Shown in pieces: positions 392 to 34,592 of a stretch of DNA of 64,000 nucleotides. The position numbers and the translations under genes are program-made. Below the pieces are notes generated by a model, which saw only the letters and a list, made by a program, of their open reading frames with translations, ran no database searches and was not told the DNA's origin. Every line of letters starts with the position of its first letter. Within the stretch, counting starts at the first letter, position 1. Source of the DNA: Psammoneis japonica (taxonomy: Eukaryota); the NCBI GenBank assembly GCA_008632985.1, contig QPGO01000192.1, positions 1 through 64,000 on the forward strand, in the 5' to 3' direction.

Positions 392-787
392 GACGCATTC
401 CAGACGCAGGTGGGAATCCGTGTGACATCGGGCCCGTAGACTTCTGCGTGCGAGCTCTGCAGCAAAATTGCACGGCAATTAAAACGCCAATGATCGCCAA
501 CAGAAAATGAGGCAATTTTGCGAATGCACAAACTCGCACATGATTGAAGTGCATCATTTTTTGCTTGGCCAGTTGCACTCTTCAGACATTGAAGAATGCA
601 ACTGGCGCATTGTTGTTTCTGCAAATTTGTCACACAAAACGTCTGGGGCTTTGCAAAACAGCGAGTCTGGACAATTTTTTTTAAATGTCACACGTAGAAA
701 TCTACGTGCGAAATGTGCGACGGATGACAAAAATCATTGTTGTCACACGTCAGTGCTGCGAGCTCCCACCTGGGGCTGGAATGCGTC
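392..787 (+). mobile_element. MITE family A copy (GACGCGTTCCAG-type TIRs, 4-bp TSD)
   Basis: Termini GACGCATTCCAG...CTGGAATGCGTC; TSD TTGC at 388-391 and 788-791; near-identical to 34593-34988. Confidence 0.85.
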
Positions 788-1296
788 TTGCTTTGGCTCA
801 TCAAAGAAGGGTGGGTGGTGCTGGTGGACAGACCCCAGTGAAAGAGCTGTTCAACACGCAGCTGTTGTTGGACACATGCGTGGTTGTGCACGTGATTCAA
901 AACATTCACTCGCCGGGGTGCCAAATCAAAAATTTGGGGCTGCTCTCATTTCATCAAGTGCTGTGAGTCACTCGCCACAAATCGCTGTGCAAATCACCTG
1001 CAATCAACTGGCAAGGACACCTTGTGCAGCTCCAAATGATTGGCGAAGCAGATTCTTTCAGTGGAAGACCATTGCCCAATGTCAAGCATGTCTGTGCAAT
1101 CAGTTTGTGTGCTCAAGATGTGCGCCAGTGTCAAACAGGGCAGGAGACAGAGATTGTCTCTTTTCTTCATGCTTTTGCCGTGGTTTCTATTTTTTAACAC
1201 TGTGAAGCACACACGCAATCATAAAAACAGCGGAGCAAAGAATGATGAGAAAAGATCCAGCCGCGAGCCTCTTCTGAAAGGCGCGCGACGGATGAA

Positions 1297-7134: not shown

Positions 7135-8394
7135 GTTTTTTGAGGTTCGACTTTCAACAGATGTGTCCTAAACAACTGAAAACTGTCTGTTGCGAAAGTA
7201 AGGCGGAGTGGTGAGAGTGGAAAGCATCAGAAACTCAGCCATTGAGCAAACGCGATCCCTAAAATACCAAACACGATCACAAGGATCATGGCAAGAAGTG
7301 TATGTTCATGGACCGTCCGCCGCTATACTCATCAACAGTAGTGTTGCTTACCTTGACGCAAAGAGTATGTTCACTTTTGTGTTCCCTTGCAGGATAGAAT
7401 AGGGGTAAAGTATTTGGAGAGATGTGTTGCTGTGTGTTGTGTTCGATCGTGTTGTGTTTTTATGAGCGAAAACTGCATCTCCCTCCCTTTGTAACCACTT
7501 GTTCTTTGTTCCACAACACGTTCTATTTAGAGACACCCGACTCACCATCGCGCTGAACATTCCTGCTACTTATCGTTTCCCCTATGTCTCTCTACCTCGC
7601 AATTTTCTTTACATGTGTTTCGAATCGCCCAATTAACAATCGTGGCATGATCTTAACAGCTGCTACGAACGAGAACCCTGATTTTGACAAAGTACACGTG
7701 CTCCTCATGTCACATCAATCGTGTCCCCTGGACCATTGACATTTTTGCACAGTGTCTTTTGCAGTATGGTAATCGTGCAGAAGATTCTTTGCGGTCAAGA
7801 ATAATCCCCGCGAGGAGGAAGATTCTGTGGGATGGGTCCTCAGTCGTGAGGAAGTTTCCGTGGCAACTTCTGTCCATACCAGCAAAGGACGTACGAACTG
7901 ACACTCTAGGCTTCCGATTGGACGAAACTTCATGTGTGTTGTCAAGAACGAGAACCCCAATCAATCACAGATTGCCACGGCCCTGTGAGTCGCGTGTCAT
8001 TGCACTGGAGTTGTGGTGTCCAAAATCCGCTCTAGCTAGGTGCAACACCGGGCGGGGAGGCGTTGTTCTGCCAAATAAAAAACGTAACAGAGGTGCGAGG
8101 CAAGGAGTCGTCAGTCGACACAACAATCATTCCAACAACAACCAACAATGTATGGTAATGGATCACTCCCGGCTTTTGGGAGGTCTGTAATGGATGTGAT
8201 GCAGAAGACTACGGTATGTATGTAGTGGGCAGAAGGTGGGGCCGGCGGGGACTTCTGCCAGCCACCGTCTCGATGTGATCAGTCTGTCTTCTGCGTATTC
8301 TCACCGTGGATAAACTTGCGAGGATCTCCTGCACATTGCCCCCCCCCGTCCCCGCGCAGTGGGTCAGGTGCAAGCGCGCGGCGCTCGCACTTTG

Positions 8395-10194
8395 GGACTC
8401 CCACTGCTCGAGTGTGGGTGGGCCTAAGTAATTCTAAAAACCGTTAACGGCCGTTACTATGTAATTTGGTAGTATTTTGGTACTCTATATATGAGGCATT
8501 TATGTAGAAATTACGTACGTACAATTAATAGGGGAAGCGAGCGTGGAGAAGAGACGACGCGAGCGAAGCACGAGCGAAGAGACCGACAATGATGCAAGTG
8601 CCGGAGAGAGACGCAAAGACAGCAATCCAACGATGTTGCAAGAGGGCGCAAAAGAGAGAAAAGATCTATTTGAGTTAGTACCATATCTTCAATAAAAAGA
8701 ACAAAGCAAGACAACATTGGTGTGCACAAAAACTTGCACAGAGAAGCACGGCACCAGCGCCTGAAAAATGACCACATCTGTGGTGAAATGGAACAACACA
8801 AGGAGGTGAGAACATACTTTTCTACAAATACAAAGCAACAACAAGCAAACGACCAATGTAAACTCACCAGTAGGGTCAAAACTTGGGGTGCCTGGATCGT
8901 CAACGGCGGGCAGGGAGGACAGATGGAAGAGAGGCAGTCTGGTGGTTCCGCGGAGCAGGACGACAAAAGCAGGCGGCAAATCGGCATGAGGCATGAGCAA
9001 TGGCAGAAAGTCAGTGCTTGGGATTGAGTGACTCGTCCAGTCCATAAAAGTTGTGGCAGCAGCTTGGAGAACGGAGGCAGCGCCATGGTGGACGGCATGG
9101 ACCGGGGCAGAAGCAGCGCGCCATGGTGGGGTGACGGAGCCAAAAACGGTGACGGCGACGGTGTAGACCCATGGACTTCGACATCCCCATCTTCGAGTCC
9201 TGCACATCAAGATCCCCATCTTCAAGTCCTGCACATCAAGATGCGGGACAAGGAGGTTCAAGGTGAGTGCCACCGCGAATGAGAGCGGGGGAAAATGAGA
9301 CTTGATTCCACGAGAATCAGAGCTCACCACATTTTGAGTCATTCTGACCCATTCTAGAGCCGTGGCTCACTCACATGGCACGACCCAATGGCGTGCAACA
9401 CTGTCAAGCAAGGTGGGGGTCGGGAGGCGGTGTCGCACCAGTCAAACTGGCCAAAAGTGCCATTGTCGGAGGGAGCGGTGGTTGTCGATCGGCCGCTCGG
9501 AAAAATTGTGAGCCATCAACTCGACCGCGCACCGTCAGGAGTCGAACAAAATTTCTTGGCACAAAATGCACACAAATGTGCGTCAGCATAAAAATGGTGT
9601 AGAAGGGTTGCAAGTAGAGCCGTTGCTGTCTCCATGTAGACTGCAAGGATTCTGCCGTCAAACTGTGCCAACACGCACAATTCCACGTGGTCGATTTGAA
9701 TCAATCCCACCAACGTTTTTGAATTTCGATCGCAACAACGGCTTTAGGTGCTGAGATGAATGTGACACACAAGTTTGAATTAAATGTCATGCACAGTGTC
9801 AACAATTTTGAATGATTGCGCGACTGCCAGTCGGCACCAAAAACCATCGCCAACAAGCAAACCTGCAGCACAAAAGCACTCTTTGCGATGCTTTGGCACT
9901 TCACTCTTGCACATGAAAGCGCTCCCCAAGCAGTTGACGGTCGAATTACACACGTGAAATCCTCACAGCGGGAGACCCCATGCAGGCTCCCGTGTGCACT
10001 CAACGCGCCTCGGTTGGGACCTTCTCGTTGGGTCAGCCCAAACGAGAAGGCCACACGACAAGCTGTGGGTCATTCTTGCCATTGTGCAACCCGCCTCGTT
10101 GGTCTCCACCTCATTGCTTGGACCCTTCTTGTCGGGTTTGGCGGGGCCGAACCCTCCTGTCGGGCTCCACAAGTGCACAGGGCGCGCACCCACA
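8395..10194 (+). mobile_element. Repeat family C, complete 1.8 kb unit
   Basis: Starts GGACTCCCACTGCTCGAGTGTGGG and is followed head-to-tail by a second copy at 10195; third copy at 44817. Confidence 0.85.
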
Positions 10195-12285: not shown

Positions 12286-12619
12286 TGACATTTGTCTCCA
12301 AGGCCATTGTCACAATTGCCATTGTCATTCACAGCAGCATTGCTGGCAGTGGCAGCAGCAGCCAAGCAGTTCCATGAGTTGACATTTCTGCCTCCAGCAC
12401 CATTGTCGACATTGTCCTTGTCCAAAGTCCTGGGCAAGAGTGCTCTGTGAAAGAGGTTGAGCACGAGCATGTGTGCACAACAACAACAAACAACAACAAA
12501 CAGCATGATGGCAGCAGCAGCAATCCCGGTGTGTCAATGATTTTCACAATCAGTCAGCATGTTTGACTCGTGCAACAACAACATGTGGAATCAACCACAG
12601 AATGTCCACAGCAATGAAC

Positions 12620-13016
12620 GACAGGCTCCAGTCCTGGGCGGGACTCCATGTGACATTGGGCCCACAGAATTCCATGTGCAAGCTCCGCATTAAATTTGTC
12701 AAGCAATGAAAATGTCAATGATCACCAACAGAAAAACAATCACACAAACGCATCTCCTCCTTCACACTTTGAGCACATCATCAATGGTTTGCCCGGGTGT
12801 GCTCTGCAGACATGAAAGAACACACCCAGAGCATTTTCACTCTCATGAATGTCGAAAATAGAAAGCCTTTGGCTTCGCAAAATGGGGAGCATGAAACAAT
12901 TTCGTAGAATGTCACACGCAGAAATCCATGTGCACGACATGCCATGCAATCCAAAAAACTCTGATGTCGCAGTGCAGTGGTGCAAGGTCCCACCTCTGCC
13001 AGAGCTGGAACATGTC
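12620..13016 (+). mobile_element. MITE family A-related copy (subfamily of 33111-33507)
   Basis: GACAGGCTCCAG...CTGGAACATGTC; flanks GAAC/AAAC; reverse-complement match to 33111-33507. Confidence 0.75.
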
Positions 13017-15193
13017 AAACACAACAATGACGCAGTGTGCTTAAAAGGCAGATGCTCCTCCAAACACAGCAGCATCATTGTTGTTGTTGTCATCATTGTT
13101 TCGCAGTGCTGTTGATGCTGTTGATGATGTTGCATCATTGTTGTTCAAAGACAGCAAGTGTGTGATGTGTGGTTTGTGACAAATGGGCTGGCGGAGTCAC
13201 ATGACAGATGGATTTTTTGAGTTTTTGAATGAATGCAAAAAACAGGCAATCGTCCAACTGCGCAGGCAGCTCTTCATAAACTGTGCAGGAAATGCACTGG
13301 AACTTGTGCAGAATCCCACAACGACACAACTCCATTTCCACAACGACAAGCAGAAATTAAAGGTCCAATCTGGTGCAAGATGCACAACGACACAAAAGAG
13401 GGAATCCTCTTCATTTCCTTCATTCCACTCAAATGCTCCTGATTTGGCATGCTGCACCACAAGAAACGGCCGTGCACATTGCACTTTGATGCATCTCAGC
13501 ATTTTTCATGTGTGGTCTCTTTCTGTTGCTGTTGTGAAGGGGTTGACACACTGGCTTGGCTTCATGGGGGGCTTTGGTTTTGACACACGGTTCAAACAGT
13601 TGCATGCATTGACTCGTGCCTTGATCACTGCACTGCACGGGCACAACATCTGAATGGTCGAAAACATTGCTGAGGCAAGCTCTTTCCATGTTTTCTCATT
13701 TCACATTGTTTTCCCAGTCACTGAAGAACATTGTTGCTTTTTGTCACAGCTTGAAAAGTGGATGGATCGTCGCCTGTGGTTGATTGTGGTGTCTGGTTTT
13801 TTGGCATGTTTTTCAAGTCATTGGCACTGCCAGAGCATGTCCATTTAGGAGCTTTGTGCTTCACCCCACTCTGCATCCTTTGGTTCACCTGTTGCACACA
13901 TTAACATTGGACTTGTGACACTCTTGACATCCTTCTTGGGGTCTTGGTCAGCACACAATGACGGCATGTCATTTTTTGGGCATGTCAATTTCTCAAAAGC
14001 ACATGCCACAGAAACAAAACGACACGCAGGAGCCCAGGGGACACTTGTGACAGCGGCATTTGTCAGACAGACTTCACATGCTCCAAAAAAGATGATCATG
14101 TGAGTGTGTTGTGATTGATTGGGTTTTAGAGTTGTTTTGACGAAAGTTGCACACCTCACGAGCCTTTTTTTTAGCTTCTCGTTCATGCGTGAAGGTGTCC
14201 AGTCTGTGATGAGCCTTTCTTCCTGCTCTGCAATCAATTCTCTTCATTGTCTGAGACTCAATGTTGTCCATGTTGTGCAGGGAGATCTTGGCAGTGCACC
14301 AACGAGTCCAGGCTTTGCACTGGGTAAATGGAGAAGTGGAGGCCTGCCCTGACGGGCTCCTCGCCTCCCCTTGGATGCTCGGATGCCACGAACCACTGGC
14401 GGCACTTGGGGCCTTAAAACCAGGTGGGGTGTCTCAGAGCTGCCTCTGGAAGCTGTCACAGTTAAGCACACTGTGACATGTGGCCTTGCAGTGGATTGTC
14501 AGTGTGCGTGGCTCCAAAAACATTTTCATTTTGCCTGTCATTTTTTCAGCGTGGATGTCTTTGACTGCAAGGGCTTGCAGCAGCCTTTCCGCACCAATGC
14601 TCTCCATGACTTAAGTCTTTTGATGTTCTTTGTTGATGTGGGAAAATTAGATCCTGGAACTTTCTGCATCTAGATGGGTCTAGAGAGGAAATGGATGAAA
14701 TGAGGTGGAGCCGGCTGTCAAAAGTGATGGAGTTTTGGCTTGACGTGCGGCTGCATCTCAACGGCAGCATCAGCTGGCAGTGGGCGTGCAATTTTCCATG
14801 AGCAATGAAGCAGTGGATAATGCATTTAGACAGACCATGGCATGTTTCTGTTCTTTAGAGTGTTTGCTGCTAGCTAGTAGAGAGCTGCGACCAGCTAGCT
14901 ACGTTGGAAGCGCTCATCGTCTGGGCGTCGTGCGTGCGCGTTGAACGCATTGCACACACTCTAGGGCCCTACTCTACTAGTCTACGAATGCATCTCTCCC
15001 TCTCTCCTCCACCTTTTCCTCTTCTTTTTTTCATAAACTCGGAGCTACCTACGTGACCGGACATGTGCCGAAAAACACACGGCACAATGACACGAGCCAT
15101 GCCGTGCGACGCAAATGTGCGGTCTGCCAAATGAACTAAACTACAAAGATGCAGTGTGATTGACACAAAAGGATGAAATACAAAATACATTTT

Positions 15194-17752
15194 CTAATTG
15201 TCATTTACCGTGAATGCATACACCGATCCGGAAGCACTGCCATTGACATCAGCCTCGAACGTGCCAACTCCAACGACGCTTCCGTCGGCCGACAAGGACA
15301 CGGAATGTCCAAATCGATCATATTTAACCTCGCCATTTAAAGGATCTCCAACTTGTTTCCACTCGTCTGCATTGTCGTCGTACTGAAAGAATCGAACTTG
15401 ACCAGCAAAAGCCAATCCATCGACGTCATGCGAATCACTTCCGACCGCCAAGACGTTTCCATTTCCACTCAATGACACTGAGCCACCAAAATCATCACCA
15501 GACTGTTGTGTCAAGAGAGTTTGGCCACGTTGCTTCCATGTCAAAGTCGAGTGGTCGTACAAATGAACCAAAACTTTCTCGTGGCTTCCTCTAATTGCAC
15601 CCGCCGCCACGATCAAACCGCTGTCGTCAAGAGAAACCGAAACTCCAAACGAACCAGCAACAACTTGGCCATTGATTGGATCGCCCAACGGACCCCATTT
15701 TGACGAGGCAGCATTGTATTCAAACACCGACACTTGACCTGCATTGTCTCCACCCAAATCATTTTCATCTGCTCCAACGCCAACAATGGTTCCCTGTGCA
15801 TTCAAGGAAACGGAACAACCAAAACGATCATCAGCAGCTTGTCCAAAGAGTGTTTGTCCGAGTTGGTTCCAGGATGAGGAGCCGCGGTCGTATTGAAACA
15901 ATCGCACCGATCCGGAACCAGAGCCATTTTCCGTGTCATCCTCGTAAGCTCCCACGGCAAGAATGTCTCCCGCGTCCGAGAGCGACACGGAAAAACCAAA
16001 TTGATCAAAAGCGTCTTGTCCAAGAATGTCGCTGCCAAGTTGGACCCAACGATCCGATGCCGAGTTGTGTTCAAACACACGAACGTGACCGGCATTCGAT
16101 CCGCCACTGTCATTCCATGGAGCTCCAATGGCAAGATTCGTTCCATCGCCATTTATCGAAACAGACTCTCCAAAATCGTCGTAGCCGGCTTGTCCCACCA
16201 ATTCTTGGCCAAGTTGAATCCATTGTTGTGTGCTTGGATTGTATCGTTGCACAACAACATAGCCGGGATTGGAAGAAGATTGATCCGCTCCAATCGCCAT
16301 AACACTACCATCACGGGACAAGGAGACGGAATCCCCAAAATAATCACTCGCAGCTTTGCCGTGCATGACTTGACCAACGGGACTCCAAGTTCCATTTAGC
16401 GGCAAACTACCACTAGAAGGATTGGGCGTTGGAGCTTGAGTTGTGGGACGTGGAGTGGGATTGAGCGTTGAAGGTGGCGTTGGAGGCAAACTAGATGGAG
16501 TGGTGGGGGCTGTCGTGGAAGCTTGGGTAGGTCTTAAAGTGGTAGGAGCCACAGTAGATGGAGGAGTCGGGTTGACCGTGGGAGAGGGTGTTGGCTCTTT
16601 TGTGGAAGACAGAGTCGGCGTTGATGTCGGAGCTAATGTCGATGGAGGCAATGTCGGATCTTGTGTCGGTGAGTGTGTCGGAGGCGGAGACGAAGGATTT
16701 GGTGTAATCGTTCCCGTGCTAACATCAGTCAACTTGTCGAAAGCGTCCTCGCCTTGAGCCATACCCGCGTCCTGTAGGCCGCCTACATATGCCATTCTTC
16801 TGGCAGACGTTCTGAATGGTTCACTCACCATGTAATCAATAGAAACGTCCTTGTCTTCAAACGTATACGTGAATGATTGAGTGTATGTAATAAGCAGAGA
16901 GGGATCAGTGCCGTTGTTGCCACCTCTTTCGACATTTGTGTCGGTTACACCCAGTGAAGTTTTGACATTATGAATGCCGGTGGCCTGTAAAGAGCGCAAC
17001 AAGCGGCGTCGGCGACTGTTGTAAAAGTCCTCAACGTATTCCTTGGTCACGGCAGCCCATAAATCCGAGTCGTTCGCATCAAACACTGTGTCCAAACCAA
17101 TCAAACTCATGACCAATCCGGTAGCTTGTTTGATCGATTGCTCGCCGCTTGCTCCGCCATCGTCCCAGGGCTTCACTCCTACAATAACACCGACAATCGC
17201 AGCAATGACGAAAACAACAACTCCTCCGATGATGGTGTAACGGTTGCAACGTCTCTTCTTTTCCTCATCATTAGGAACGGCACTTTTCGTGTTGATCGAG
17301 GCAGTTGGGTCGGTGCTGTGTTCGGCATTGTCAGAAGCCATGAGGACAGGTTCCGCAACCTGGGCTTGAGCCAAAGGAACGGACCGGCGAAGAAGAATGT
17401 TTTCTTCTTGGAGTCGAGCCGCTTCTTCATCCGTCACTTGCGCAAGCTGAGCTTGGACAAGTAAATCGCTCGGATTGCGAGTGCTACTAGGAGCTGGAAT
17501 AGAGGGATCTATACTCTCGGGCTCGTCCGACATGAGGGTGACACAGTCGGGATTTCTTCCAGCTCTCGGTACAACGCCATCACGATTGACTGCATATGCT
17601 CCAGCTGCTACAGGAGCTTCTTCCATGTCTTGATTTACCTCTTGATCTTCTTGAACCGTCTCTTGTTTCTCCTCCTCCATGCTTCTACCGTGCCCACGGC
17701 TTTCAAGGGTGTCATCCCAAATCGTGGTCGGCGGCTTGTTGGAACGGTCCAT
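15194..17752 (-). CDS. Type II membrane protein with Pro/Thr-rich stalk and FG-GAP/integrin-alpha-like beta-propeller
   Basis: 852 aa intact ORF; TM segment IIGGVVVFVIAAIVGVIVGV; PT-rich linker; seven repeats of FGxSVSLxxxGxxxAxGA. Confidence 0.9.
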   Translation of the reverse strand: MDRSNKPPTTIWDDTLESRGHGRSMEEEKQETVQEDQEVNQDMEEAPVAAGAYAVNRDGVVPRAGRNPDCVTLMSDEPESIDPSIPAPSSTRNPSDLLVQAQLAQVTDEEAARLQEENILLRRSVPLAQAQVAEPVLMASDNAEHSTDPTASINTKSAVPNDEEKKRRCNRYTIIGGVVVFVIAAIVGVIVGVKPWDDGGASGEQSIKQATGLVMSLIGLDTVFDANDSDLWAAVTKEYVEDFYNSRRRRLLRSLQATGIHNVKTSLGVTDTNVERGGNNGTDPSLLITYTQSFTYTFEDKDVSIDYMVSEPFRTSARRMAYVGGLQDAGMAQGEDAFDKLTDVSTGTITPNPSSPPPTHSPTQDPTLPPSTLAPTSTPTLSSTKEPTPSPTVNPTPPSTVAPTTLRPTQASTTAPTTPSSLPPTPPSTLNPTPRPTTQAPTPNPSSGSLPLNGTWSPVGQVMHGKAASDYFGDSVSLSRDGSVMAIGADQSSSNPGYVVVQRYNPSTQQWIQLGQELVGQAGYDDFGESVSINGDGTNLAIGAPWNDSGGSNAGHVRVFEHNSASDRWVQLGSDILGQDAFDQFGFSVSLSDAGDILAVGAYEDDTENGSGSGSVRLFQYDRGSSSWNQLGQTLFGQAADDRFGCSVSLNAQGTIVGVGADENDLGGDNAGQVSVFEYNAASSKWGPLGDPINGQVVAGSFGVSVSLDDSGLIVAAGAIRGSHEKVLVHLYDHSTLTWKQRGQTLLTQQSGDDFGGSVSLSGNGNVLAVGSDSHDVDGLAFAGQVRFFQYDDNADEWKQVGDPLNGEVKYDRFGHSVSLSADGSVVGVGTFEADVNGSASGSVYAFTVNDN

Positions 17753-17951
17753 GTTTGCTTTTGATGGGAACGAGCGAGAAATTATTGAGTCAAATATGAG
17801 AAAAGAATGCCGTCTGTGAACAAGTGTCGCGTTTCTCAGATGAAAAAAATGAGAACGCCTTCAGGTGGTCTTTACGTCAGCGGTGTCATTCAAGCTTCGC
17901 ATCGTATTATCACACTCACGTCACATCAACCGCTACGGCATGGCGGCAGAG

Positions 17952-17991
17952 TAGGCCCTACTACTAGCTAGCTAGCTAGCTAGTAGCTAGA
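17952..17991. repeat. (CTAG)n short tandem run
   Basis: TAGGCCCTACTACTAGCTAGCTAGCTAGCTAGTAGCTAG. Confidence 0.8.
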
Positions 17992-19075
17992 CCTATTCTG
18001 TAGTATGACTACTTTGACAAGCTCATTCTGCTTTGCCTCTATCTTGTAATTGCGGCAGGTCCACCCTTTTGTGCCAAAATGCGTTTCGACAAGCGGTATA
18101 TGCTCTACCAAGAAGCGCGAAAAGCCCAGACTCAACAACTGTAGGAGGACTTATTGACGTACGTTAAGGTACAGGAATGCAAACGGAAAGAATGAAGGGC
18201 ATGTTAGAGCAGAGTGTGATGACACCAAACCATTTCCCTTCAACCATTACTCACGTTGGAAAGAAGCTGCACGTACGATACGGATCAGCAATCGCGCATA
18301 GCCCAAGTAGCATTCTGGAGTGCTTGACAACCTTGGCACTCTTCTGTGCCATCCCCCTAGAGAACTTATGAAACAAGGTGTGAAAGGCTAAGCTTGAAGC
18401 AACATATATTGTTGCACAGGAACGTCTTTTTGCAAGATGCAATCAAGCTGGAACCTGGCGGAGAAAGCATGGATCTTGTCAAATCCTTCTTCGTTGGAGC
18501 TTAAAACCATCGTATTTTGCAACACCAACACCTTCACACCATTCCATAATAGGAACGTATACAAGACACTATGAAGTTCCTGTATGGCGGTAAAGGATAA
18601 AATGGGACAAACAACATTCGTAAGAGAAGCGAGTCCGATCGCTAAATTGGTCTGAAAACATCAAACATTATATAGCTGCTTACTCTTGGCGCCTCAGCCG
18701 TCATTTTCTTCCACACTGACGCACATGCATCATTCAACACCAACGTATGAGACATGCCATGCAGTTCCTGTCTGGCGGTAACGCATAAACAGGACACACG
18801 AACGTGACAACGAACGCCATTTTCTCTTGCTTTTTATGCGTACGATGATGTGTTGAAAGTTGAAAAGGAAAAGGTTCTGAGCCAAAAGGAGGTAGGATAG
18901 CTTGGAAAGGATGGAGGGGGGATGCGCCGCAGTTCGCGTGCGTCCTGTGCGACATCGAAATGTGAAACGTGCCTGCTTCCGCTGTTCCCTTCCGCTCAGT
19001 GAAACTCGTCGATGCCATTGCCGCCTCCATGCTAATCTGTTTTGACCTTTGGTTCATTGCATGAGTTTCTCAACT

Positions 19076-19380
19076 CTAGAGAGCAGTTGATGCCCACACT
19101 TGCTTCAGCTGGCTTGTCTCTGACAACAGACCAGATTCAGCAGCATCTGACTCGAACATTTTCATGACGACTCTCATTGCCCAACAATTGACAGAGGTTT
19201 CCCATCCATGACTTGTCATCGTAGACTTCAACATGCCAGCAAAACTCCAACACGTTGGAATCTGGGCTGCTTCCAATGGAAAAAAGGGCGCCAGTGCGAT
19301 CTCATTGTTGGGAAGCCGCAAGTGCGCATGCTGACCGGGTTCACATTGAAACAAGGACGGTCATCTCAGCTGCAAAAGAG
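19076..19380 (-). pseudogene. Degenerate duplicate fragment of the ferric reductase FAD-binding region
   Basis: Homologous to about 22040-22240; FQCEPGQHAHLRLP versus FQYEPGQYAHLRFP. Confidence 0.85.
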
Positions 19381-20633
19381 TTGCGTTGTGCCATGTGAAA
19401 TGTCCCTCATTCCAATGTTCCCTTCCATTCCCTGCAGCTTGCACTGCCACCCGGTTTTTAACTTGCTTGTGTGAGCTTTGACCCTGCGTCATTGTTTGAA
19501 GATGACTGCCAAGTCCTGAGGTTGATGAAAAAAACTCCAAGGACTTTTCACTGCTTCAGTTAGAGCCTCTGTGTGGGCAGAACAAAAATGAAACTGTGGA
19601 GCCAATTCCCAGCAATTGTTAGTTAAAGTGCTGGCTTTTCAAGCAGTCTTCAAATGTGCGCTTCATCATCAAGGCAAGATGATGGAGCACTTGCTTGCCA
19701 TGTGATGACACCAGCTCATTGGATGAAGCTGGGTCATCAGGAACTCAAAACTGCAAAAAACTGTGAGTTGTCACACAGAGGGAGATGAAGAAGACTTCTT
19801 TGGCATCAGTGCAAAATGCAAAGGGGGCACAGTGCTGCCAAGCATCATGTCACCAGGCAAACATGCCCCACTGACACCAAGTGCTTGGGGGCATTTAAAG
19901 CTCTGGGCAGCAACATCAGCCCTGAACCCAGAGACACTCCCAAGAGCTCAAAATGTCAAGGGCTGGCATCTCACAGAGACAAAAGGACAACAAGGGGGTG
20001 CCATGCTCAGACATTTCAAGAAGGCAGAGGCTCAGAGTCTCACGTTGGCGCACAAAGCGCCAGTGCTGGCCCAGATGCCAAAGACCAACTTGTTGCTGCA
20101 AACATCTCATGAAACCAGCAAGTGCAGAAATTTTGCTCTCATTTGCTTTCACTGGTTGTGGCATGGTGAGAATGACTCAGGTCAATCACCCCAGTGTCCC
20201 AAACCAAAGGGAGTGTTCAAAGCAATGTTGTTAGAAAGGGACGTGTGACATGCGCAGGAAGGGACAAAAATGTCTTCAGCCACAAAGACGTCAATTGAGG
20301 ACATGGGGCCCAAACGCAGCTGTCCCTGTCAAAATGCTCTCGTGAAGATCATTGTCAACTAGCATTGGCAGCTGCCGGTGGCAGCCAAGCATTTGAACAG
20401 GCTGGCAGAAGGAACACCGGATGAGGAATGAGCACGATGCGAACAATGAAGCGACCCGGCTAGAAGCATCATCACAAATGCATCTCTAGTTCTTGTGCTT
20501 GGAAGCTCCAACGCATGAAAGCCCAGACTAAGTCAATCAATGCATGCTGAGGTAACACAGTTATAAATTATAAATGCGCAAGGCAAACTAAAACAATTCT
20601 AAAGTTGCGTGCCGTCCACGATCCTCTGTAGTC

Positions 20634-22890
20634 TCAAATGGAAATAAGGTGGTCCTCGTTGTCTTCAAAGGTGTCCGTCGTGTCCAATTCGTCTCCCGAA
20701 TGTTGCTTCTCCGTGAAACTGGGCGAATCCATAAAGACACTGTACTGTGGTGTCTGCTTTTTCGTAGACGCAGCGATTGCATCATTGCTCTTTTTGTTCG
20801 ACGACGGACGCTTGGTGTAGGCACCATAACTCTCGGACACGAAATCCATTTCATGGCACTTGTTTCCCGTAATCATTGTCGAGATATCCACAATGGTCTT
20901 GGCTTTGCTAATCACAGATGATAGCTTGGGAGATCCGCAAAAGCACAAGAGGGTAGACGAGGTGGGACGACTCTCATCATAAATGCGTTCCATGGCGTGC
21001 TCTTAGAATAGTTTAGAGATGTCAGGACGCTCATAATGGAATGCACCTTGCTTGTAAAGGGGCGTCGGACAACTCCTGCTTGAGATAGTCCACAGCGGCT
21101 TTGTCCTTGTCGGTAACGTAAATAGAAACCTGACACACCTTGACGGCATTCTCCAATCCCCACACCGCGACTAGCGCATTCCATTCTTGCATGATTGTGG
21201 GCGCAATCTTTAGGACATTGGTGGATGGACGCGTAATCCAAACAAAGTGTAGCTTGTCCAGTGCCGAACATGTGTGCTGTCGTTCCAAACTGCTCCGCAA
21301 TGAACAGTATCGTGGCTTGACGGCCGAATGCCACAAACGTGCGGTCAAGTATCCAAACAACAAGATATAATACACATGCTCGGCTGCTTCAAAGTTGGCC
21401 CACTTGTCGTACTCAAACCAATACCAATTGGCCACGGCACCAGCAATGACAATCAAAACATCAACATAAGCCAGCAAAGAGCCGCGGTCCCAATACCCAA
21501 TCGACACAACGACAAAGGCACCTTGAAACACAATAGAGCCAACAATCAACACTTCTCGCATGCCGTCGTAGAGTTCAAAAGGCATGGTATTCCACGATAA
21601 GGTCAATCCCAACATGATAACTCCCAGGACAACCAATTGCATCAAGATATTGACGCCATAAATGGGTAAAGACGCACGCTTGGCCGCCTCTCGCAAATCC
21701 TTGGCTTCCGCATCACTCGAATCAAAGATTCCCGAAATGATGCCCATTTCATGTCGCGTTGGTTGAGGTGAACACCGTAAAAAGTAGTTGAGCCACGATC
21801 CGCGTGTTTGTTCCCGCGCTCGTTCCATACGCTTGAGTTGAGAATGCATTTGGGCTTGTTCTTCAAAGTATGTTTGTGGGTCCAATCGAAGTAGCTGACA
21901 AATGTGCTTTTTGTATAGACCCAAAATGGGAACCACGCCGGAACCACTGCCAATAGCCATGGCATGAGAGTATCGATGAGTATCACCCAAGCGTGTTCCG
22001 TACGGTCCCATGACTTGCACACGAACATTCTCGTGGCTAACGTCATTACCCAACAATTGACAGAGTTTTCCAGTCCACGATTTGTCGTCATAGACTTCAA
22101 CATAAAACTCCAACACGTTGGAATCCGGACTGCTTCCAATCGAAAAGGGATGCCAATACGAATCAATGTCGGGAAACCGAAGATGCGCATACTGACCGGG
22201 TTCGTATTGAAACAAGGAGGGTCGTCTGAGCTGTAGCAAAATCATGCTGGACTTTGTATTCTTGACAATCTTCGCTTGTAAGACACGCGTCTTGTAGCGA
22301 TGATTGAGACGCATGGCAAGGCGGTCCGAAACGTAGTACAAGAGTGTCGCCGAAAACCACTTGAACGTTTGACTCCGATTCTGTCCGTCCTTTCGAACGT
22401 TGATATCGATCGTATGCAACAAGACCACAAGGTACATGGCAAATACCAAATGATGAATGCCATAAAAGACTTTGTATGGCATGTAATTCCGAAAGAATGA
22501 CGTGGACAGAATAATCAAGACAAAGGCCACAGTAATGTACCCCGTAATCATGATTTCCAAAGTAAACTTGTCACAAAAGGCTTGTTCGCCATCGGAACAA
22601 AGCAACCCAAAATAGGCAAAAAAGAAAATCGTGGCAATCACCACGATGCTCCCAAAGACATGAAACTTGACCACAAAGAAATGGGCTGCGTGCTGCGTCG
22701 TAATGTGCACTTCTACGTGTGATGGAGTAGAGGTGCAGCGGCATGTTTGAGATGAGCTTAGCAAATAATACACACAACTCAAACACAATAATTTGATGCG
22801 TTCCGCCAACAATTCATATTCGAGTTGCAGAACTTTATGTGCTTGAATCGCACTGGAAGTCCCAAAAAAAAAACGACGTGGAGAGAACAA
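20634..22890 (-). pseudogene. Ferric reductase / NADPH oxidase (FRE/NOX-like), disrupted
   Basis: Motifs FYGIHHL..LH, PGQY, WHPFSI, GPYG, GSGSGVVP and FVW. The C-terminal ERPD..FCGSP..FVSESY lies in another frame after a shift near 21060, with an in-frame TAA at 21003-21005. The 5' end is unclear. Confidence 0.75.
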
Positions 22891-23178
22891 TCAAGACAAT
22901 TGGGAGGATCTGCGTTGTTGTGACGCAAGACGCAATAAGCAGCTCTGTGCAAAACAGTAGCGACGACAGCGAGCATTCACGACGCTGTTGTTGCGAGAAT
23001 TCTTGCTGTTGTTGCACATGTATGTCACGGAGCCTTGATAGAAGTAGCAATGCAATGACAGCAGCATGGTGTCAGCAAGAGGTAAGTAAGAGGCATGCTA
23101 TTGTCCTTTGGAAGAGGAGCAGTGGCAGCAGCAACGCGTATGTCTGGTGGCACAACCGAATACAAGCGACCACAAACC

Positions 23179-26100
23179 GGCATTTTTGCACCTAGTGTGG
23201 GGAAAGCGTTTTGATTAACTCGACTCGAGCGAAGCGAGAGGAGTCATCACGCAAAAGTAACCCGGATGTTAAAGTGTTGACTCACACGCAGTTTACAGTG
23301 CGTAGACAACATCACCATGGGCGGAACCGGTAGCGGCGGCAATAGAAAGGGGTCTGGCAGGCCAGTCTCCCACATTAAAGGACAAGGAACTATTTTTGGA
23401 GCCAAGTATGATTGAAGTGAAGAATTGGCTCGAAAGCAGAATGCTCAGCCGGCGTTGACGGCTGCAGAAGCTCGGCGCAAGCGACAAGCCGAGCAGCAGA
23501 AAGCAGCAGCAGCGGAGCTGCAAGCAGCCAGAGCAAGGGAAAGACAAGAGGCTCTGGAGCAAGAACGTCTTAACAAACAGAAGAGTGATGAGGAAAAGCA
23601 AATTCAGGTGCTGGAGAGGCTCACTGCAGTGGCAGACATCGCCCCAGAACTGGGTTGGCGCGAGGACAGGAGGAAGGCGACGACGATGACGAGGCGCATT
23701 TTAGCGACGACGATGAAGACTACAATGAAGACACTGAAGATGACATCAGTGAAGCAACAAAAAAGAAGCGTGAGTCGTCTCAGTGCAAACCCCAGCCTGG
23801 CTCACTGCTGTCAAATCACTTGGAAGGAGTCAAGAATGCAGTCATGAGCTCCAGCAATGCAAGTGCATGAAAGAACAGCAAGCAGTGGTGTCCGCCTGAT
23901 TTTTCAGCTGTGTCACTTCCGACTCTTGATGATCCTTTTGATTGGGCAAAGGAGGCTGCATGGGTTTTTCATTTTGATCCATTTGGCCACAATGGGGGGT
24001 CCACGAGATTGGCTCTGAATGAGCACAAATGCATCCACTGCGGCAAGTGTGGCACTCTTGAGTCCAATGGGTGGCATCATCGGCCAATGCACCTGCATTT
24101 GATTGCTGCTTGGGTTCTTCATTGGAGAATTCATTGTAGAGGGGAGGACAGGAACAAGCAGGGGTGCGGCAGAACGTTTGCGGAGTTCCATCTGAAGCTC
24201 ATGTCGCAGTTGCCAAACGTTGTTTCGGAGCGATTTCCATTTCTTGTCACTGCCAGTGGAATCGGAGTGCATGAGTCAATGATGTGCCAGTTTCTTCACT
24301 TGTGTGTGAAGGGTGTGCTGTTTGGCACATGTTGCTCTGGCGTCAATGAGCCAAAACACACGCAGCATTGGAAGGACAACCTTGACCAACCTTTCGCATC
24401 TTGACATGCTTTCTGACAAGGTGGACGGTCGTGCGGCTTTTTCGTCCACTGCCACAGCAGCTGACACATTTGTCCCACAGTCATTCTTTCCCTTTTGCTC
24501 TGTGGGTGAACACAACTGTGTGCTGCTGAAACCACGACTCCTGAAGACGCTTTGTCCACAGGTGCACTTCTCGTCTCTGGCATCAATCGCAACTGTTGCA
24601 CTGTCATCATCATCAACTCTTTCATTTGAACTCTTTCATTTGTGCACTGCCAGGCAATGGCCACTCTAGAACCATGTTTTCAAGCTGGCCATCAATTGCA
24701 TCCAGACGAGTTGGAGACTGGCGATCATTCATTCAAGTTCGCGAAAATGACATCGGCATCGAAACGATCCGGAAAAGCATTCCTTGCAACGTGTGACTCG
24801 GTGTCGCTTGGAGGCATGGTCACCTTCAATCGTTTGACCCATGCCAAATCTGACGATGAATTGAGGCCGTTTTTTCATCAGTGCAAAAGTGTGAGAATCA
24901 ACAGCGGCGCCACTGAACTGAAAAGGGTGGAAGGTGATGGTGGTGGTGACCGTGGGTTGTGGCCAGAGGTTTTCAAAGAGCTCCTGCAGAAAGTGAAGCC
25001 GTGGAAAAGGAATTCTTACAATGCACTCCCTCGAGCTTGTCTTGCAAAAGACAAATGTGTTGTGTTCTCGACTTGCACCGAGGCTCAGAACTGGGCCCTC
25101 AGTCTTGCAGCCAAAGTCGCTTCTCTGGATGGTGAGATTGTGTGTGGCATTGATTCGGAGTGCAATCTTGATGAAACGCGATCGACAACGCGGGTGCTTC
25201 AGACATGCTTTCCACCCCAGCTCTGCAACAAAGTCACAATTCTTGACTTGACGGAAATGGGTCTTTTTGATGCATCTGATGTGCCGCCAGCTTTGAAGCG
25301 CCTTTTGGAAAACAAAAAGCTTGTTCCCACTGCTGTGAATGTCTCATTTGATGTTGGTGGATGCCACGCTCTTGGAATCAATGTGCCGCGAGCAATTGAA
25401 ATGATGGAGTTAGCAAAACAACTGGAGCCCAATCATCTGGAGGGATGCGGCATGCAGAAGCCCTGCGCTCGACTTCTTGAGGTGTGCGTTGACAAGTTCG
25501 GCCAGAATGCAGACTGGAGAATCATGAAAATCTGCGAGGACTCAAAGGAGCATGCAGCATTGGATCCCCATCCACATTTGCGGCTTTGCATTGTTTTGAA
25601 GGCCCAAATTGCAAATGCAAGGCGTGCGGGAAAGATTCCAGTGTCTGAGTTGTCGGATGGCAAGAATGTGCACCTGATGCACCGCAATCAAGTTTGTGCC
25701 ACGGGTGAGCTTGTCTTTGTCGGTGGCACAGGGGGTGAGATTCGCAAGCGGGCCAAATGACCATCAGGAGAAAGAGCAGTGTCATGAAAGTCAAACGTGT
25801 GCTCATGCGAAGTGTCCGTCCAGCATTTAGCTGCAATGTTGCTGCAGAGGAGCGCGCAGCCGGTGTCACAGGTTGGAACCATTCAAAAGTTCTTTTGCAC
25901 GAGGAATTTGAGAAACGCCAAACCTTTGACGGCATGGCAGTTGCATGACCGACCAATCGCATCCGTGCACAGTTGGAGCCAGCTGCAATTGGGAGCGACA
26001 ATGTGGGTGACATGGTGGATGACAGCTTTGGACGTGATGCTGCGACGGAAGATTCAATGGAAGAATCGGCAGAGGGTGTCGACTCGGGAGCACCGACTGC

Positions 26101-28342
26101 AGATGTGACGGAAGAATCAATGGAAGAATCGGCCGAGGGTGTCGACTTGGGAGCACCGACTGCAGCAGCCAACATGGCAGAGATTGGTGACTTGGGAGCA
26201 CCAACTGTGGCAGCCAACTCACCGGAGAGCAGTGACTCGGAAGCTGTTGTGGTGGATGACGCAAATTCTGGTGAGTGGCTCTGCAATGCTGGGGACTTTG
26301 ACGATGAGAACGACACGATCAACCTCCCGAGAACTCGTCAATCAATGGATCGGTTTCACGCATTGACGACATTCCATCCCCGTCCAATCCCAAAACAAAA
26401 AACATGACAAAGTTGGTTCGTCAGTTGGTGATTCAAGCTGCCACTGAGTTTGATGCAGACGGTTGGGACGACATGACAAGATTCCTTGCCAACCGTTGTG
26501 GCACTGCCTCTGTGGAGGATGCCCTCAACCACTTCTGCTTCAACCAAGAATTTTGGTGTCAGCGAGTCCAGATGTGCCCCCCCCCCCAGCAAACAAAGGA
26601 GCTGACAACACATTCGTGCTGTCCGCAATGTGGTCCAGTCTAATCCTGTGTGAAAGAGTGCTGGAGCACCAAGCTCCAACAATGCTTTGACCGTTTGGAA
26701 GAAATGTGCAAGCAAGGTCAACTCAAGGATTCTCGAGATGCAGTGATGCATCAGTGGGATGGCAAGGACAAGAATGGATTGAATCTTTGGCTCCGTTGAC
26801 GGGGATCAAATTGGTCGGAGAATTTGCATCAGAAAATGCGGGTGGCATTTGGACCCCATGGTGTTGGTGCAGAGGTGGGGCACTTCTTGCTTCTCCTTGT
26901 CACATGTCGACACAACACAAATGCTGGGATGCAACGCAGTGGTTGCCATGATTTTGGCATGCCACATCACGACATCATTGATCGAATGCAACTTCAAATG
27001 CTCAAGTTGTTTGGCTGTGATCCATTTCCCCAACACACCAATCAGTCCTTGTTCAAACCAGCAGATGATTTTGTTGCGGTTGGCGTGGGGCCATCAAATC
27101 ATGATGAAAAGTTTGTTGAGCACCAAGACACACTGGAGATCCCAAGCTCACAGGCGACTTGAAGTTTCTTGCTGGTGAGTCCTGCATGCCGTGTGTTGGC
27201 ACTCGATGCAATGTTGACATGCAAAATCTCACGCAAGTGACTCTTCTTGCTTTTTCGCAAGAATGCATGAAACTGAGAGGCCCCCGTTGCACATTAGCCA
27301 TCCAAACAAAAAGTGGATTTACAATGATTTTCTTGAGGATCATCCAAAACCCACCTGGAAAACTTGGGTTGAATTGGCAAGATTGTTCAAACTAAAAGCA
27401 GGCTGTGTCACGATTTTTCCCAAGCTCCCTTCCATGCTCAGAAGCTGACACAGGAGTTGGTGATGCTCAAGGACACCACAGGAGTGGACTGCTGCGGCCT
27501 GTTGGAAAAATTTGCAAGGCCAGGTCGGGAAGAACAGAACAAGAATCCGGCCGCGGCTTTTCAAAACCGTTCCAGCAAGCCTCCCTTGGAGCTGGCGGAA
27601 GTGGAGTTGGAGCAGACTGCCACAGAGGCTGCATTTGACAAATGCTGATGACATTTCAACCAACCCATTGCCAGTGGCACCATTGGTTGCTCCCACTCAA
27701 GCTGCCCACATTGTCAGCGCCGACAGGGACAGACGCGGGGCAGATCGACAACGGTGCAGCGCCGCTCCTTTTGGATGCCCCAACCTTGCCAAGGACTGTT
27801 CACGGTGGGGATGGCAACATTGCTCATTGGTTAAACGCAAGAGTGCTCCAGTGAACGCACCTGACTCAGAAGGTGAACGGAAAAGGTTGAAATGTGAGTG
27901 CGACAAATGACAGTCTTCCGAGAGAATGGCAGAACTCAGAAAGAAGAAAAAGGGAGCAGAAAACAACAAGCAAGCATCAATGGCAACACTTCTGTTGCAC
28001 CACAGTGTCGTGACATTTTATCCAAGCAATGTGTTGATGCCCTTGTTTTGCCATTGCTCTCATCACACCGCAGCCAAAGGTCGATCTTTGGACAGCCGAT
28101 TTAGAAAGTGCGTGAATTGAACAATTTGATTCAAATCTCACATTGAAATGACTGCACCCAAGTGTGATGCAACCTGGACCACATGTGCGGCACAAGCTGA
28201 TGACTCTTGAATGTCATCGAGGCCTCATGTGCGGTGCAAATTTTGTGCCGCACACAAGGGCACCACATTTAAGGAACGACCTTCCATGTCAGTGTGGTCC
28301 TTGTGTGCGTTTGCCCACACCATCTGACGACCTGCCCACACA
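23179..28342 (+). mobile_element. Dada-like DDE DNA transposon, copy 1 (about 5.16 kb, degenerate transposase with DnaQ/WRN exonuclease)
   Basis: ATG at 23317. CxxC..C..CG..F and QLP..FPF block, then GDHSFK, exonuclease GIDSE...HAALD, DRFH (DxxH) and RGSNxxENLH. No long TIRs. Acidic 63-bp internal repeat at about 26044-26170. Confidence 0.75.
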
Positions 28343-28733: not shown

Positions 28734-29261
28734 ACACAGGATCCGCGGATGCACCAGGGGAATCTGCGAAATGCGGGATGAAAGGGGAAAGGGGCAAATG
28801 TGAATGGTGGAAAAGCGACATGCCATTGTTTTACCTTGAGGGACCCTTTAGTCAGCCAAACATGCTCATTGCCGATTTGACCCTCGCAGGTCCGTCCTTT
28901 CGGGGTTGTTAAATTGTGAGAGCAGACGCGGTCTCGAGAAATGATTTTGCACATTTTGTTGGACCATTGATGTCACATAAATCTGAAAACGACACACATG
29001 AAAAAAGTGAATTTTCAACTTTGTGCAACCTTCATGGCCACACATGTTGTGTGACGATCAATCCTCAAGACGCGTCCCGTCTCACAACATTTTGACACCC
29101 CCCATGAGACGGACCTGTGATGGTCAGATGAGAAAGATGCATGTTCCGCTCACCAAAGGGACCCTTGAGGCACAATGACAGCTCCTCACTTTCCCGCCAT
29201 TCCCATTTGCCCCTTTCCCCTTTCATCCCGCAATTCCCGGGTGCACCCGTGGATCCCGTGT
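28734..29261. mobile_element. MITE family B (long imperfect TIRs, inserted at a TA site)
   Basis: ACACAGGATCCGCGGATGCACC...GGTGCACCCGTGGATCCCGTGT; the empty site in copy 1 reads CTTAACAAAC; flanks TA/TG. Confidence 0.8.
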
Positions 29262-31537: not shown

Positions 31538-31723
31538 NNNNNNNNNNNNNNNNNNNNNNNNNNNNNNNNNNNNNNNNNNNNNNNNNNNNNNNNNNNNNNN
31601 NNNNNNNNNNNNNNNNNNNNNNNNNNNNNNNNNNNNNNNNNNNNNNNNNNNNNNNNNNNNNNNNNNNNNNNNNNNNNNNNNNNNNNNNNNNNNNNNNNNN
31701 NNNNNNNNNNNNNNNNNNNNNNN
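31538..31723. other. Assembly gap (N run)
   Basis: Run of n inside Dada-like copy 2. Confidence 1.
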
Positions 31724-33110
31724 GGAAGATTCAATGGAAGAATCGGCAGAGGGTGTCGACTCGGGAGCACCGACTGCAGATGTGACGGAAGAATCAATGG
31801 AAGAATCGGCCGAGGGTGTCAACTTGGGAGCACTGACTGCAGCAGCCAACATGGCAGAGAGTGGTGACTCGGGAGCACCAACTGTGGCATCCAATTCACT
31901 GGAGAGCAGTGACTCGGAAGCTGTTGTGATGGATGATGCAAATTCTGGTGAGTGGCTCTGCAATGCTGGGGACTTTTACGATGAGAAGGATGCAATCGAC
32001 CTCCCGAGAACTCGTCAATCAATGGATCGGTTTCACACATTTGACGACATTCCATCCCTGTCCAATCCCAAAACAAAAAACGTGATAAAGTTGGTTTGTT
32101 GGTTGGTGATTCAAGCTGCCATTGAGTTTGATGCAGATGGTTGGGACGACATGACAAGATTCCTTGCCGACCGTCGTGGCATTGCCTCTGTGGAGGATGT
32201 CCTCGACCACTTCTGCTTCAACCAAGAATTTTGGTGTCATCGAGTCCAGATGTGCCCCCCCCCAACAAACAAAGGAGCTGACAACACATTCGTGCTGTCC
32301 GCAATGTGGTCCAGTCCAATCCTGTGTGGAAAGAGTGCTGGAGCACCAAGCTCCAACAATGCTTTGACAGTTTGGAAGAAATGTGCAAGCAAGGTCAACT
32401 CGAGGAATCTCGAGATGCAGTGATGCATCAGTGGGATGGCAAGGACAAGAATGGATTGAATCTTTGGCTCCGTCAATGGGGATCAAATCGGTCGGAGGAT
32501 TTGCATCAGAAAATGTGGGTGGCATTTGGACCCCATGGTGTTGGTGCAGAGGTGGGGCACTTCTTGCTTCTCCTTGTCACATGTTGACACAACATAAATG
32601 CTGGGATGCAACGCAGTGGTTGCCATGACTTTGGCATGCCACATCACGATGTCATTGATCGAACGCAACTTCAAATGCTCAAGTTGTTTGGCTGCGATCC
32701 ATTTCCCCAACACACCAATCAGCCCTTGTTTAAACCAGCAGATGATTTTGTTGCGGTTGGCGTGGGGCCATCAAATCATGATGAAAAGTTTGTTGAGCAC
32801 CAAGACACACCAGAGATCCCAAGCTCACAGGCGACTTGAAGTTTCTTGCTGGTGAGTCCTGCATGCCGTGTGTTGGCACTCGATGTGATGTTGACATGCA
32901 AAATCTCACACAAGGGACTCTTCTTGCTTTTTTGCAAGAATGCATGAAACTGAGAGGCCCCCCGTTGCACATTGGCCATCCAAACGAAAAGCGGGTTTAC
33001 AATGATTTTCTCAAGGATCATCCAAAACCCACCTGGAAAACTTGGGTTGAATTGGCAAGATTGTTCAAACCAAAAGCGGACCATGTCACGATTTTTCCCA
33101 AGCTCCCTTC

Positions 33111-33507: not shown

Positions 33508-33899
33508 CTTCCATGCTCAGAAGCTGCTGCAACAAGTGGAAAGTGACACAGGAGTTGGCGATGCTCAAGGACACAACAGGAGTGGACTGCTGCGGCCTGT
33601 TGGAAAAATTTGCAAGGCCAGGTCGGGAAGAACAGAGCAAGAACCCGGCTGCGGCTTTTCAAAACCGTTCCAGCAAGCCTCTCTTGGAGCTGGCGGAAGT
33701 GGAGTTGGAGCAGACTGCTGCAGAGGCTGCATTTGACAAATGCTGATGACATTTCAACCAACCCATTGCCAGTGGCACCATTGGTTGCTCCCACTCAAGC
33801 TGCCCACATTGTCAGTGCCGACAGGGACGGACACGGGGCAGACAGACGACGGTGCAGCGCCGCTCCTTTTGGATGCCCCAACCTTGCCAAGGACTGTTC

Positions 33900-34261
33900 G
33901 ACGCGTTCCAGACGTAGGTGGGAATCCGTGTGACATTGGGCCCGTAGACTTCTACGTGCGAGCTCCGTAGTAAAATTATACGGTAATTAAAATGTCAATG
34001 ATCGCCAACAGAAAATGAGGCAATTTTGCGAACGCACAAACTCGCACATGATTTAAGTACATCTGAAGAATGTAACTGGCTTATTATTGTTTCTATAAAT
34101 TTGTTATATAAAACGTCTGGGGCTTCGCAAAACAGCGAGTCTGGACAATTTTTTTTAAATATCACACGTAGAAATCTACGTGCGAAACATACGACGGATG
34201 ATAAAAATTATTGTTGTCACACGTCAGTACTACGAGCTCCCACCTAGGGCTGGAACGCGTC
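33900..34261 (+). mobile_element. MITE family A copy, TpA-rich (little mutated)
   Basis: Perfect 12-bp TIR; TSD GTTC. Confidence 0.9.
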
Positions 34262-34592
34262 GTTCACGGCGGGGATGGCAACATTGCTCATTGGTTAAAT
34301 GCAAGAGTGCTCCAGTGAATGCACCTGACTCAGAAGGTGAACGGAAAAGGTTGAAATGTGAGTGCAACAAAAAACAGTCTTCCGAGAGAATGGCAGAACT
34401 CAGAAAGAAGAAAAAGGGAGCAGAAAACAACAAGCAAGCACCAATGGCAACACTTCTGTTGCACCACAGTGTCGTGACATTTTGTCCAAGCAATGTGTCG
34501 ATGCCCTTGTTTCGCCATTGCTCTCATCGCACTGCAGCCAAAGGTCGATCTTTGGACCGCCGATTTAGAAAGTGCGTGAATTGACCAATTTG

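Follow-up and report, generated by a model that had tools for sequence, protein, structure and literature searches.

A Ferric Reductase Relic in a TA-Erased Repeat Block and the TpA Hypermutation Signature of the Psammoneis japonica Genome

Features of the Locus

The window analyzed here comprises 64,000 bp of Psammoneis japonica DNA (contig QPGO01000192.1 of assembly GCA_008632985.1, positions 1 to 64,000), in which gene islands alternate with blocks of repeats from which the dinucleotide TA has been nearly erased. A ferric reductase copy lies in one of the islands and a short relic of a related FAD-binding exon lies in a neighboring block (Table 1). Measured against its relatives in a tandem array, the window reductase retains 71 of 87 TAs, in agreement with the sequence-only reading of this region, which had the gene-island copy keeping its TAs. 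Its TA changes are symmetric (7 versus 11) despite a 216-bp coding deletion at 22659 that is spanned by contigs of both X1 and X2; a further 2-bp loss at 21066 has no support from the listed contigs, and this copy is probably a pseudogene. The array reductases number seven in the assembly (96–99.97% alike), with X1 depth suggesting about three to four, and may be too young to be informative. Named protein homologues are mostly from diatoms, with best identities of 51–53%, in keeping with a diatom source.

Table 1. Features of the window discussed in the text.
Feature	Position	Strand	Remarks
Older TA-erased MITE copy	392..789	+	26 TA→TG/CA; same MITE as 33899..34262
Repeat copy	8380..10150	+	TAs kept in first ~600 bp by gene island, erased further in
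TA-erased block with relic	18899..20460	.	6.4 TA/kb and 26 CG/kb, versus about 41 and 55 in flanking islands
Dispersed coding remnant fused to relic 3′ end	19009..19145	-	71–84% identical to two unlinked TA-erased loci (L010, L011)
Ferric reductase/NADPH-oxidase FAD-binding exon relic	19150..19377	-	premature stop, frameshifting insertions, 7/8 gene TAs lost
Motif FQCEPGQH	19327..19348	-	two Tyr codons lost (TA→TG, TA→CA) and one CpG transition
Ferric reductase copy	21031..22890	-	FAD_binding_8, E 5.5e-14; TAs kept
Relic-homologous part of reductase gene	22019..22241	-	8 TAs
Repeat end upstream of reductase	23173..23575	+	11/12 TAs are TG/CA in copy at 28337
TA-intact MITE copy inside erased block	33899..34262	+	

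Positions 12500–23200 (L012–L023) form a diverged copy of a tandem unit of ~15 kb found on other contigs (C233, C387, C438, C487, and C2), which contains the reductase, a Copia remnant, a kinase ORF, and a neighboring TM/FG-GAP ORF; the kinase part is absent from the window copy. This kinase ORF has a weak MLKL_N match (E 3.6e-5, below cut-off), and its pairing with the TM/FG-GAP ORF is immune-like. Elsewhere in the window are a large multi-copy repeat (23566–28342, 28918–33110, and 39998–44772) with a 3′-5′ exonuclease domain (PF01612, E 2e-8), a palindromic CTAG-rich simple repeat (17947–18000), and a run of N (31538–31723).

A contig of run X1 spans 18794–20614 unbroken and differs from the window by two substitutions and two one-base gaps. 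The two substitutions within the block are a TA→CA change at 19620 and a CG→TG change at 20049, possibly segregating products of two mutators. This agreement excludes an error in the present assembly as the source of the block, with the proviso that X1 may come from the same sample; run X2 gives no cover over the block, a gap that carries no weight. A sequencing or base-calling artefact as the source of the TA-poor sequence deserves next to no credence given the match to X1 bar those two substitutions and the coexistence of intact and erased copies of one MITE. The remainder of the block (19378–20460) gave no match, with no Pfam domain found in the eight block ORFs. The block was considered as an ortholog of the one behind the array reductase and rejected, the latter being a Copia remnant of which only the first ~70 bases align.

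The Reductase Relic

The relic and the homologous part of the neighboring gene are paired by local alignment over their full intervals in Table 1 and lie in the same orientation (blastn 79.8% over 223 columns, E 1.4e-49). Reductase homology had originally been assigned to the whole of 19076–19380; it is upheld for 19150–19377, whereas 19076–19149 belongs to the dispersed remnant fused to the relic. That remnant is perhaps a transposase, a weak lead drawn from a best Atlas score of 0.84 and a DDE_Tnp_IS1595 match on 16% of one cluster.

The relic is 78–80% identical to every close in-genome copy, whereas the window gene is 92–93% identical to seven others, so the relic is older than the split of its neighbor from them. 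Differences between relic and gene fall on codon positions 3, 1, and 2 in the proportion 24/8/5, a skew with p = 0.049 against the 50% expected under constraint on the living gene alone. Together with the equidistance, this marks it as an old paralogue relic rather than a recent copy of the neighbor, one that, judging from its codon pattern, was probably functional for some time. No closer parent was found among 13 protein matches.

Six gene TAs align cleanly in the relic, where they now read TG (three), CA (one), GA (one), and TA (one); two further gene TAs fall at indels and are missing, one of which is a TA→TG change in another alignment, and no new TA has arisen. TA survival (1/6) is thus below that of the other non-CG dinucleotides (141/194; Fisher p = 0.008), and counting the indel sites it is 1/8 (p = 0.001). 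Seven of the 15 CpGs are now TG or CA, one of them within the motif FQCEPGQH. The 37 substitutions divide into four clean TA→TG/CA changes, seven CG→TG/CA changes, and 26 of neither class. By itself the relic proves little about the process, since clean TA changes make up only four of its 37 substitutions and a repeat remnant adjoins it.

Direction of the TA Changes

The two 22-mers on which the earlier interpretation rested are present at 22188–22209 (gene) and 19327–19348 (relic), and their minus-strand translations bear out its statement that FQYEPGQY has become FQCEPGQH. Across 115 homologues, the tyrosine of PGQY is conserved in 99 and replaced by His in 2, and the FQY position is Phe in 109, Tyr in 4, and Cys in none, while a third lost tyrosine (EFY) is Tyr in 106. 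Tyrosine occupies both sites in all eight close in-genome copies, none of which (0/8) has Cys or His there, and a distant paralogue reads FRYEPGQY. These conserved Tyr codons set the direction as TA→TG/CA, so that the claim of TA as the ancestral state was well founded, as was its expectation of biased TA loss (p = 0.008, above). The exception is the SYW site, where homologues have His in 55 cases and Tyr in 7 and the TA change is not polarised.

Mutation Spectrum in a MITE Age Series

A MITE of 397 bp, bounded by 12-bp TIRs and flanked by 4-bp target duplications, has over 1,200 candidate copies and underwent a recent burst (L029–L087). Two sets were drawn from it as the best 30 of the >1,200 candidates for each of two queries, and picking by similarity biases both. 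The young set comprises 29 copies (98.9% alike) and shows conversion at 29 of 898 TAs and 1 of 754 CGs, with zero to three converted sites in each copy. In the older set, of 30 copies, conversion has reached 688 of 927 TAs (CA 348, TG 340; 4 transversion-type) along with 98 of 779 CGs; against a real-copy reference with two near-duplicates removed, the TA count is 668/896. Both TG and CA occur among the copies at 26 of the 31 MITE TA sites, from which TA is ancestral without recourse to an outgroup.

The hazard per A depends on the following base, at 1.15 for TAC, 1.05 for TAT, 0.40 for TAG, and 0.26 for TAA; among 4-mers of the window, TA survival declines from TTAA (0.51) to ATAT (0). A→G changes outside TA form a faint tail (VAY 30/2343 versus VAR 4/2453), non-CpG C/G transitions amount to 6/2986, and transversions to 22 per 10,152 sites. 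No strand-coordinated bursts or tracts were seen in the series (p = 0.38), the two strands being struck independently.

Displaced Copies of Host Genes

Erased DNA contains 154 ORFs of at least 150 aa, of which 143 were scanned (omitting five that overlap a methyltransferase copy and the six shortest); six have retrotransposon domains, three have host domains (ankyrin, GST, and FGGY kinase), and 134 have no match. The FGGY kinase, which we take to be glycerol-kinase-like, is found intact on contigs C214 and C58 and as an erased, full-length copy on C47. In the latter, 40 of 46 TAs are lost with 2 reverse changes, and tyrosines read Cys or His at 10 of 11 positions, while the intact C58 gene retains 29 of its 33 silent TAs; five more kinase copies, partial or more degraded, are likewise erased. 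A GST gene (C194) has three erased copies with TA losses of 31/36, 28/33, and 31/36 (reverse changes 0, 0, and 1), in which 35 of 40 aligned Tyr cells are now Cys or His. Situated inside blocks, these full-length duplicates of the kinase and GST genes have therefore lost 85–87% of their TAs, in pairs of 0.95–1.7 kb that are about 90% identical.

A C5 DNA methyltransferase is likewise represented by four or more TA-erased copies (L119–L121, L124–L130), with no close intact parent among the fetched loci; four of them on C297/C301 have His, His, Cys, and Cys at a tyrosine kept in 17 of 17 intact homologues. They may derive from a host gene or from element cargo, and DNA_methylase matches in the genome number 27. 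The ankyrin-repeat ORF (L221:7589-8398) lies within an erased block.

The kinase and GST losses show that the process is not confined to TE sequence. The same had been claimed from the relic, where the argument fails because the relic is fused to a dispersed remnant of erased loci; as regards sequence, the claim stands on the kinase and GST genes. Every erased host-gene copy examined sits in an erased block, so the process may nonetheless depend on TE context.

Position and Time Determine Which Copies Are Erased

Across 19 stretches positioned on large contigs, about 42% of the sampled DNA (78,947 of 190,000 bases) was called erased by an HMM that slightly over-calls, and Rho(TA) is bimodal in 380 windows. 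One HMM call in the window (15382–16153) was rejected as false, showing few changes against array copies. CpG loss goes with TA loss in the blocks, and changes between island paralogues are symmetric. Some erased stretches retain 46–53 CG/kb, which makes CpG decay a loose marker.

A single element copy (8380 in Table 1) crosses from one state to the other, with 20, 5, and 5 TAs kept in its first three 200-bp bins and an independently erased interior; 15–16 of its first 20 TAs are TG or CA in the copies at 10195 and 44817. The copy at 23173 shows the same behavior. Of the 29 young TA-intact MITE copies, 21 have both flanks erased, so position alone is insufficient, and from the edge gradient and the intact young MITEs together, fate is set by position and time.

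These observations bear on a RIP-like alternative with inverted chemistry, in which pairing of homologous copies would lead to both partners being struck and selection would purge the mutated alleles of the working gene. It would account for the fact that all erased host genes found are duplicates, and a burst followed by purging is compatible with sequence. However, the intact partners have 19–22 silent TAs per kb, inside the range of 14–32 of eight comparison ORFs that are themselves possibly multi-copy, and the window reductase, with its 216-bp deletion, still keeps 71/87 TAs with symmetric changes (7 versus 11). One element copy is intact at its edge and erased inside, and young MITE copies carry zero to three changes, not bursts. 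In Bigelowiella natans, moreover, an NCLDV target of comparable mutation is single-copy (Mettrop et al., bioRxiv 10.64898/2026.01.13.699255). Pairing of this kind is accordingly the least credible of the biological alternatives considered here.

The sequence-only reading also proposed that the copy in the repeat block mutates rather than both partners, unlike RIP. This is carried by the kinase and GST pairs and by the gradient within one element; the relic cannot serve, as its pair with the gene (about 225 bp, 79.8%) lies under the RIP thresholds and is unable to test the matter.

It is very likely, therefore, that a mutator works site by site on either strand, converting TpA to TpG or CpA, preferably at TAC and TAT, in any sequence of a block, with changes that accumulate over time while the partner outside is spared; this activity fades toward the gene islands across a few hundred bases. 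Its address is probably silenced, CpG-methylated chromatin rather than homology pairing or foreign sequence, since transposons of diatoms carry DNMT5-dependent CpG methylation (PMC9998398) and CpG decays in the same blocks. Any sequence within a transposon-rich block, of whatever origin, would then be a target. For the relic, this gives an old reductase paralogue in a transposon-derived block that was mutated as a bystander, and we place the probability of that whole chain of explanation, including the adenine deamination considered below, at roughly 0.55.

Candidate Chemistry and Enzymes

The purity of the transitions and the strict 5′ T suggest adenine deamination in DNA by an enzyme of the TadA/ADAT/ADAR type, a chemistry to which we lean by a modest margin. 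Adenine in block DNA would be converted to inosine and copied as G, yielding TpG or CpA from TpA, and as most Tyr codons are removed the proteins of transposons and duplicate genes would be killed. These enzymes have A→G chemistry in common with the process described here, and their natural substrates are RNA. TadA-derived editors may have a comparable preference for a 5′ T and a 3′ pyrimidine, for which the literature consulted offered no confirmation. ADAR favors U upstream of the edited A (10.64898/2026.01.13.699255).

On sequence grounds, A→G is indistinguishable from T→C on the opposite strand, and T→C at RTA mirrors A→G at TAY. A thymine lesion with the same targeting is thus an alternative, in which TET/JBP-type oxidation of T in RTA (to 5hmU or beyond) would cause mispairing with G; in dinoflagellates, 5hmU is found on repeats with TA and TC preferred (PMC11572971). 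In the MITE series, however, T is nearly spared at TC (ATC 0/270, CTC 0/210, TTC 0/450, GTC 6/387), which makes thymine oxidation unlikely, though it is the strongest of the competing explanations. A search of genome G000 for Tet_JBP gave no match, but the control was equally silent, and such a gene may nonetheless be present.

TA and CpG loss share the same blocks, which would also be expected if T:G mismatches from 5mC deamination were handled by mismatch repair with Pol-eta-like miscopying of A at WA, the pathway that in B cells yields A→C/G at WA motifs (PMC4686820). The Pol-eta/non-canonical AID signature, with A→C/G at both TA and AA, is not what the MITE series displays: AA contexts are nearly spared (AAA 1/930, AAT 13/710, versus 180/218 at TAT), transversions are as rare as given above (22/10,152), and strand-coordinated tracts are lacking. 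TA events also exceed CpG events 7:1 in old copies and 29:1 in young ones. Error-prone patch repair is accordingly improbable, on a level barely above that of homology pairing.

A third possibility dispenses with a targeted mutator, and attributes passive A→G change to a repeat-associated adenine modification (e.g., 6mA) or to hypoxanthine left unrepaired in compact chromatin. The events are indeed gradual, independent, and on both strands, and the deaminase family is not expanded. Against this, the hazard per TA base (0.69) is ~10 times that of CpG (0.068) and more than 300 times the non-CpG transition frequency (0.002), and ApT outside TAT is barely changed (GAT 0/216). Such passive decay is therefore doubtful, ranking just behind thymine oxidation.

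Returning to adenine deamination, no dedicated DNA-acting enzyme was found in G000, whose deaminases comprise one ADAT2, one TadA-like gene, two A_deamin genes, and apparent metabolic deaminases. The ADAT2 (L093; C26) has the HxE-PCxxC motif and the Asn discussed in the B. natans preprint, a residue also present in two aligned solved ADAT2/TAD2 chains. The two A_deamin genes (ADAT1/ADAR-type) are separate (L110 on C40; L111–L112 on C79). A 491-aa ORF (L092:313-1785, minus strand) fuses a zinc deaminase domain with a DIOX_N/2OG-Fe(II) oxygenase.

Comparison with Known Systems

The closest parallel is the chlorarachniophyte B. natans, for which Mettrop et al. (bioRxiv 10.64898/2026.01.13.699255) describe region-confined T/A→C/G transitions at TpA and long-term TpA depletion in an organism where ADAT2 is present. 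The signature was measured directly there, and the authors propose an A-deaminase; the process is active now, at about a 1000-fold rate, only in some lines. Two integrated viral regions and 124 clusters that pass a mild cut-off (Rho ≤0.43) are reported, TEs are only "potentially" targets, and the phenomenon is framed as anti-foreign defense. TpA transitions on both strands and regional confinement are likewise found in P. japonica, where the targets seen are transposon blocks and their passengers. The differences are that the host here is a stramenopile, that about 42% of the sampled DNA is near-completely erased, and that TEs and copies of host genes are both struck; a TAY preference, a small VAY tail, CpG co-decay, and an edge gradient also set the present case apart. 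The text of the preprint contains no diatom, CpG, or trinucleotide analysis. As for present activity in P. japonica, the young MITE copies and the single TA→CA difference in X1 provide only hints.

Fungal RIP converts CpA to TpA in both copies of pairs longer than 400 bp and more than ~80% identical, between mating and meiosis (PMC2621366). Like the present process, it hypermutates repeats through transitions at a particular dinucleotide and thereby disables both transposons and duplicated genes. The chemistry is the reverse, RIP creating TA where here it is destroyed (CA/TG→TA 1/1470 versus TA→TG/CA 688/927 in the older MITE copies). In place of damage to both copies, the intact kinase, GST, and reductase copies keep their silent TAs while the block copies are erased, and the kinase and GST pairs, unlike the relic pair, are within the size and identity range of RIP. 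A RID/DNMT4-type methyltransferase is a further mark of RIP. DNMT5-dependent methylation occupies the same target compartment, with CpG decay beside TA loss, but accounts only for CG→TG/CA, which is here about 10 times slower than TA conversion.

No report of TpA hypermutation in a diatom was found in the open-access literature. An unnamed Copia protein from ENA (P0254), 59% identical, has Cys or His at 12 of 15 conserved tyrosines and is the one erased-like sequence among 120 relatives, a hint that the same process possibly operates in a second source. None of 77 metagenome Copia loci was erased (Rho 0.43–0.86 versus 0.11 here), these being best matches to an intact query from assemblies that collapse repeats, so that the negative carries little weight.

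Biological Significance

The process in P. japonica matches the TpA hypermutation of B. natans, not RIP, and is RIP-like in effect. A more far-reaching proposal, offered tentatively, is a diatom "inverse RIP" in which a heterochromatin-guided DNA adenine deaminase would rewrite TAY in silenced DNA, as an old SAR defense shared with chlorarachniophytes. Elsewhere the signature was found only in the preprint on that one rhizarian alga, which was unable to say whether TEs or host DNA are targeted; here the targeting rule is legible from the sequence as one of position, rather than origin or pairing. TA decay provides a repeat clock running about 10 times faster than CpG decay, and the long Tyr-free false ORFs that it leaves are a warning for annotation. 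Gene duplicates landing in repeat blocks are predicted to die fast through tyrosine loss. The signature also points to a putative TAY-preferring enzyme that would change A to G directly in the genome. If the proposal is true, inverse RIP would break the symmetry of gene duplicates by position, and its enzyme would represent a naturally occurring A-to-G editor of genomes.
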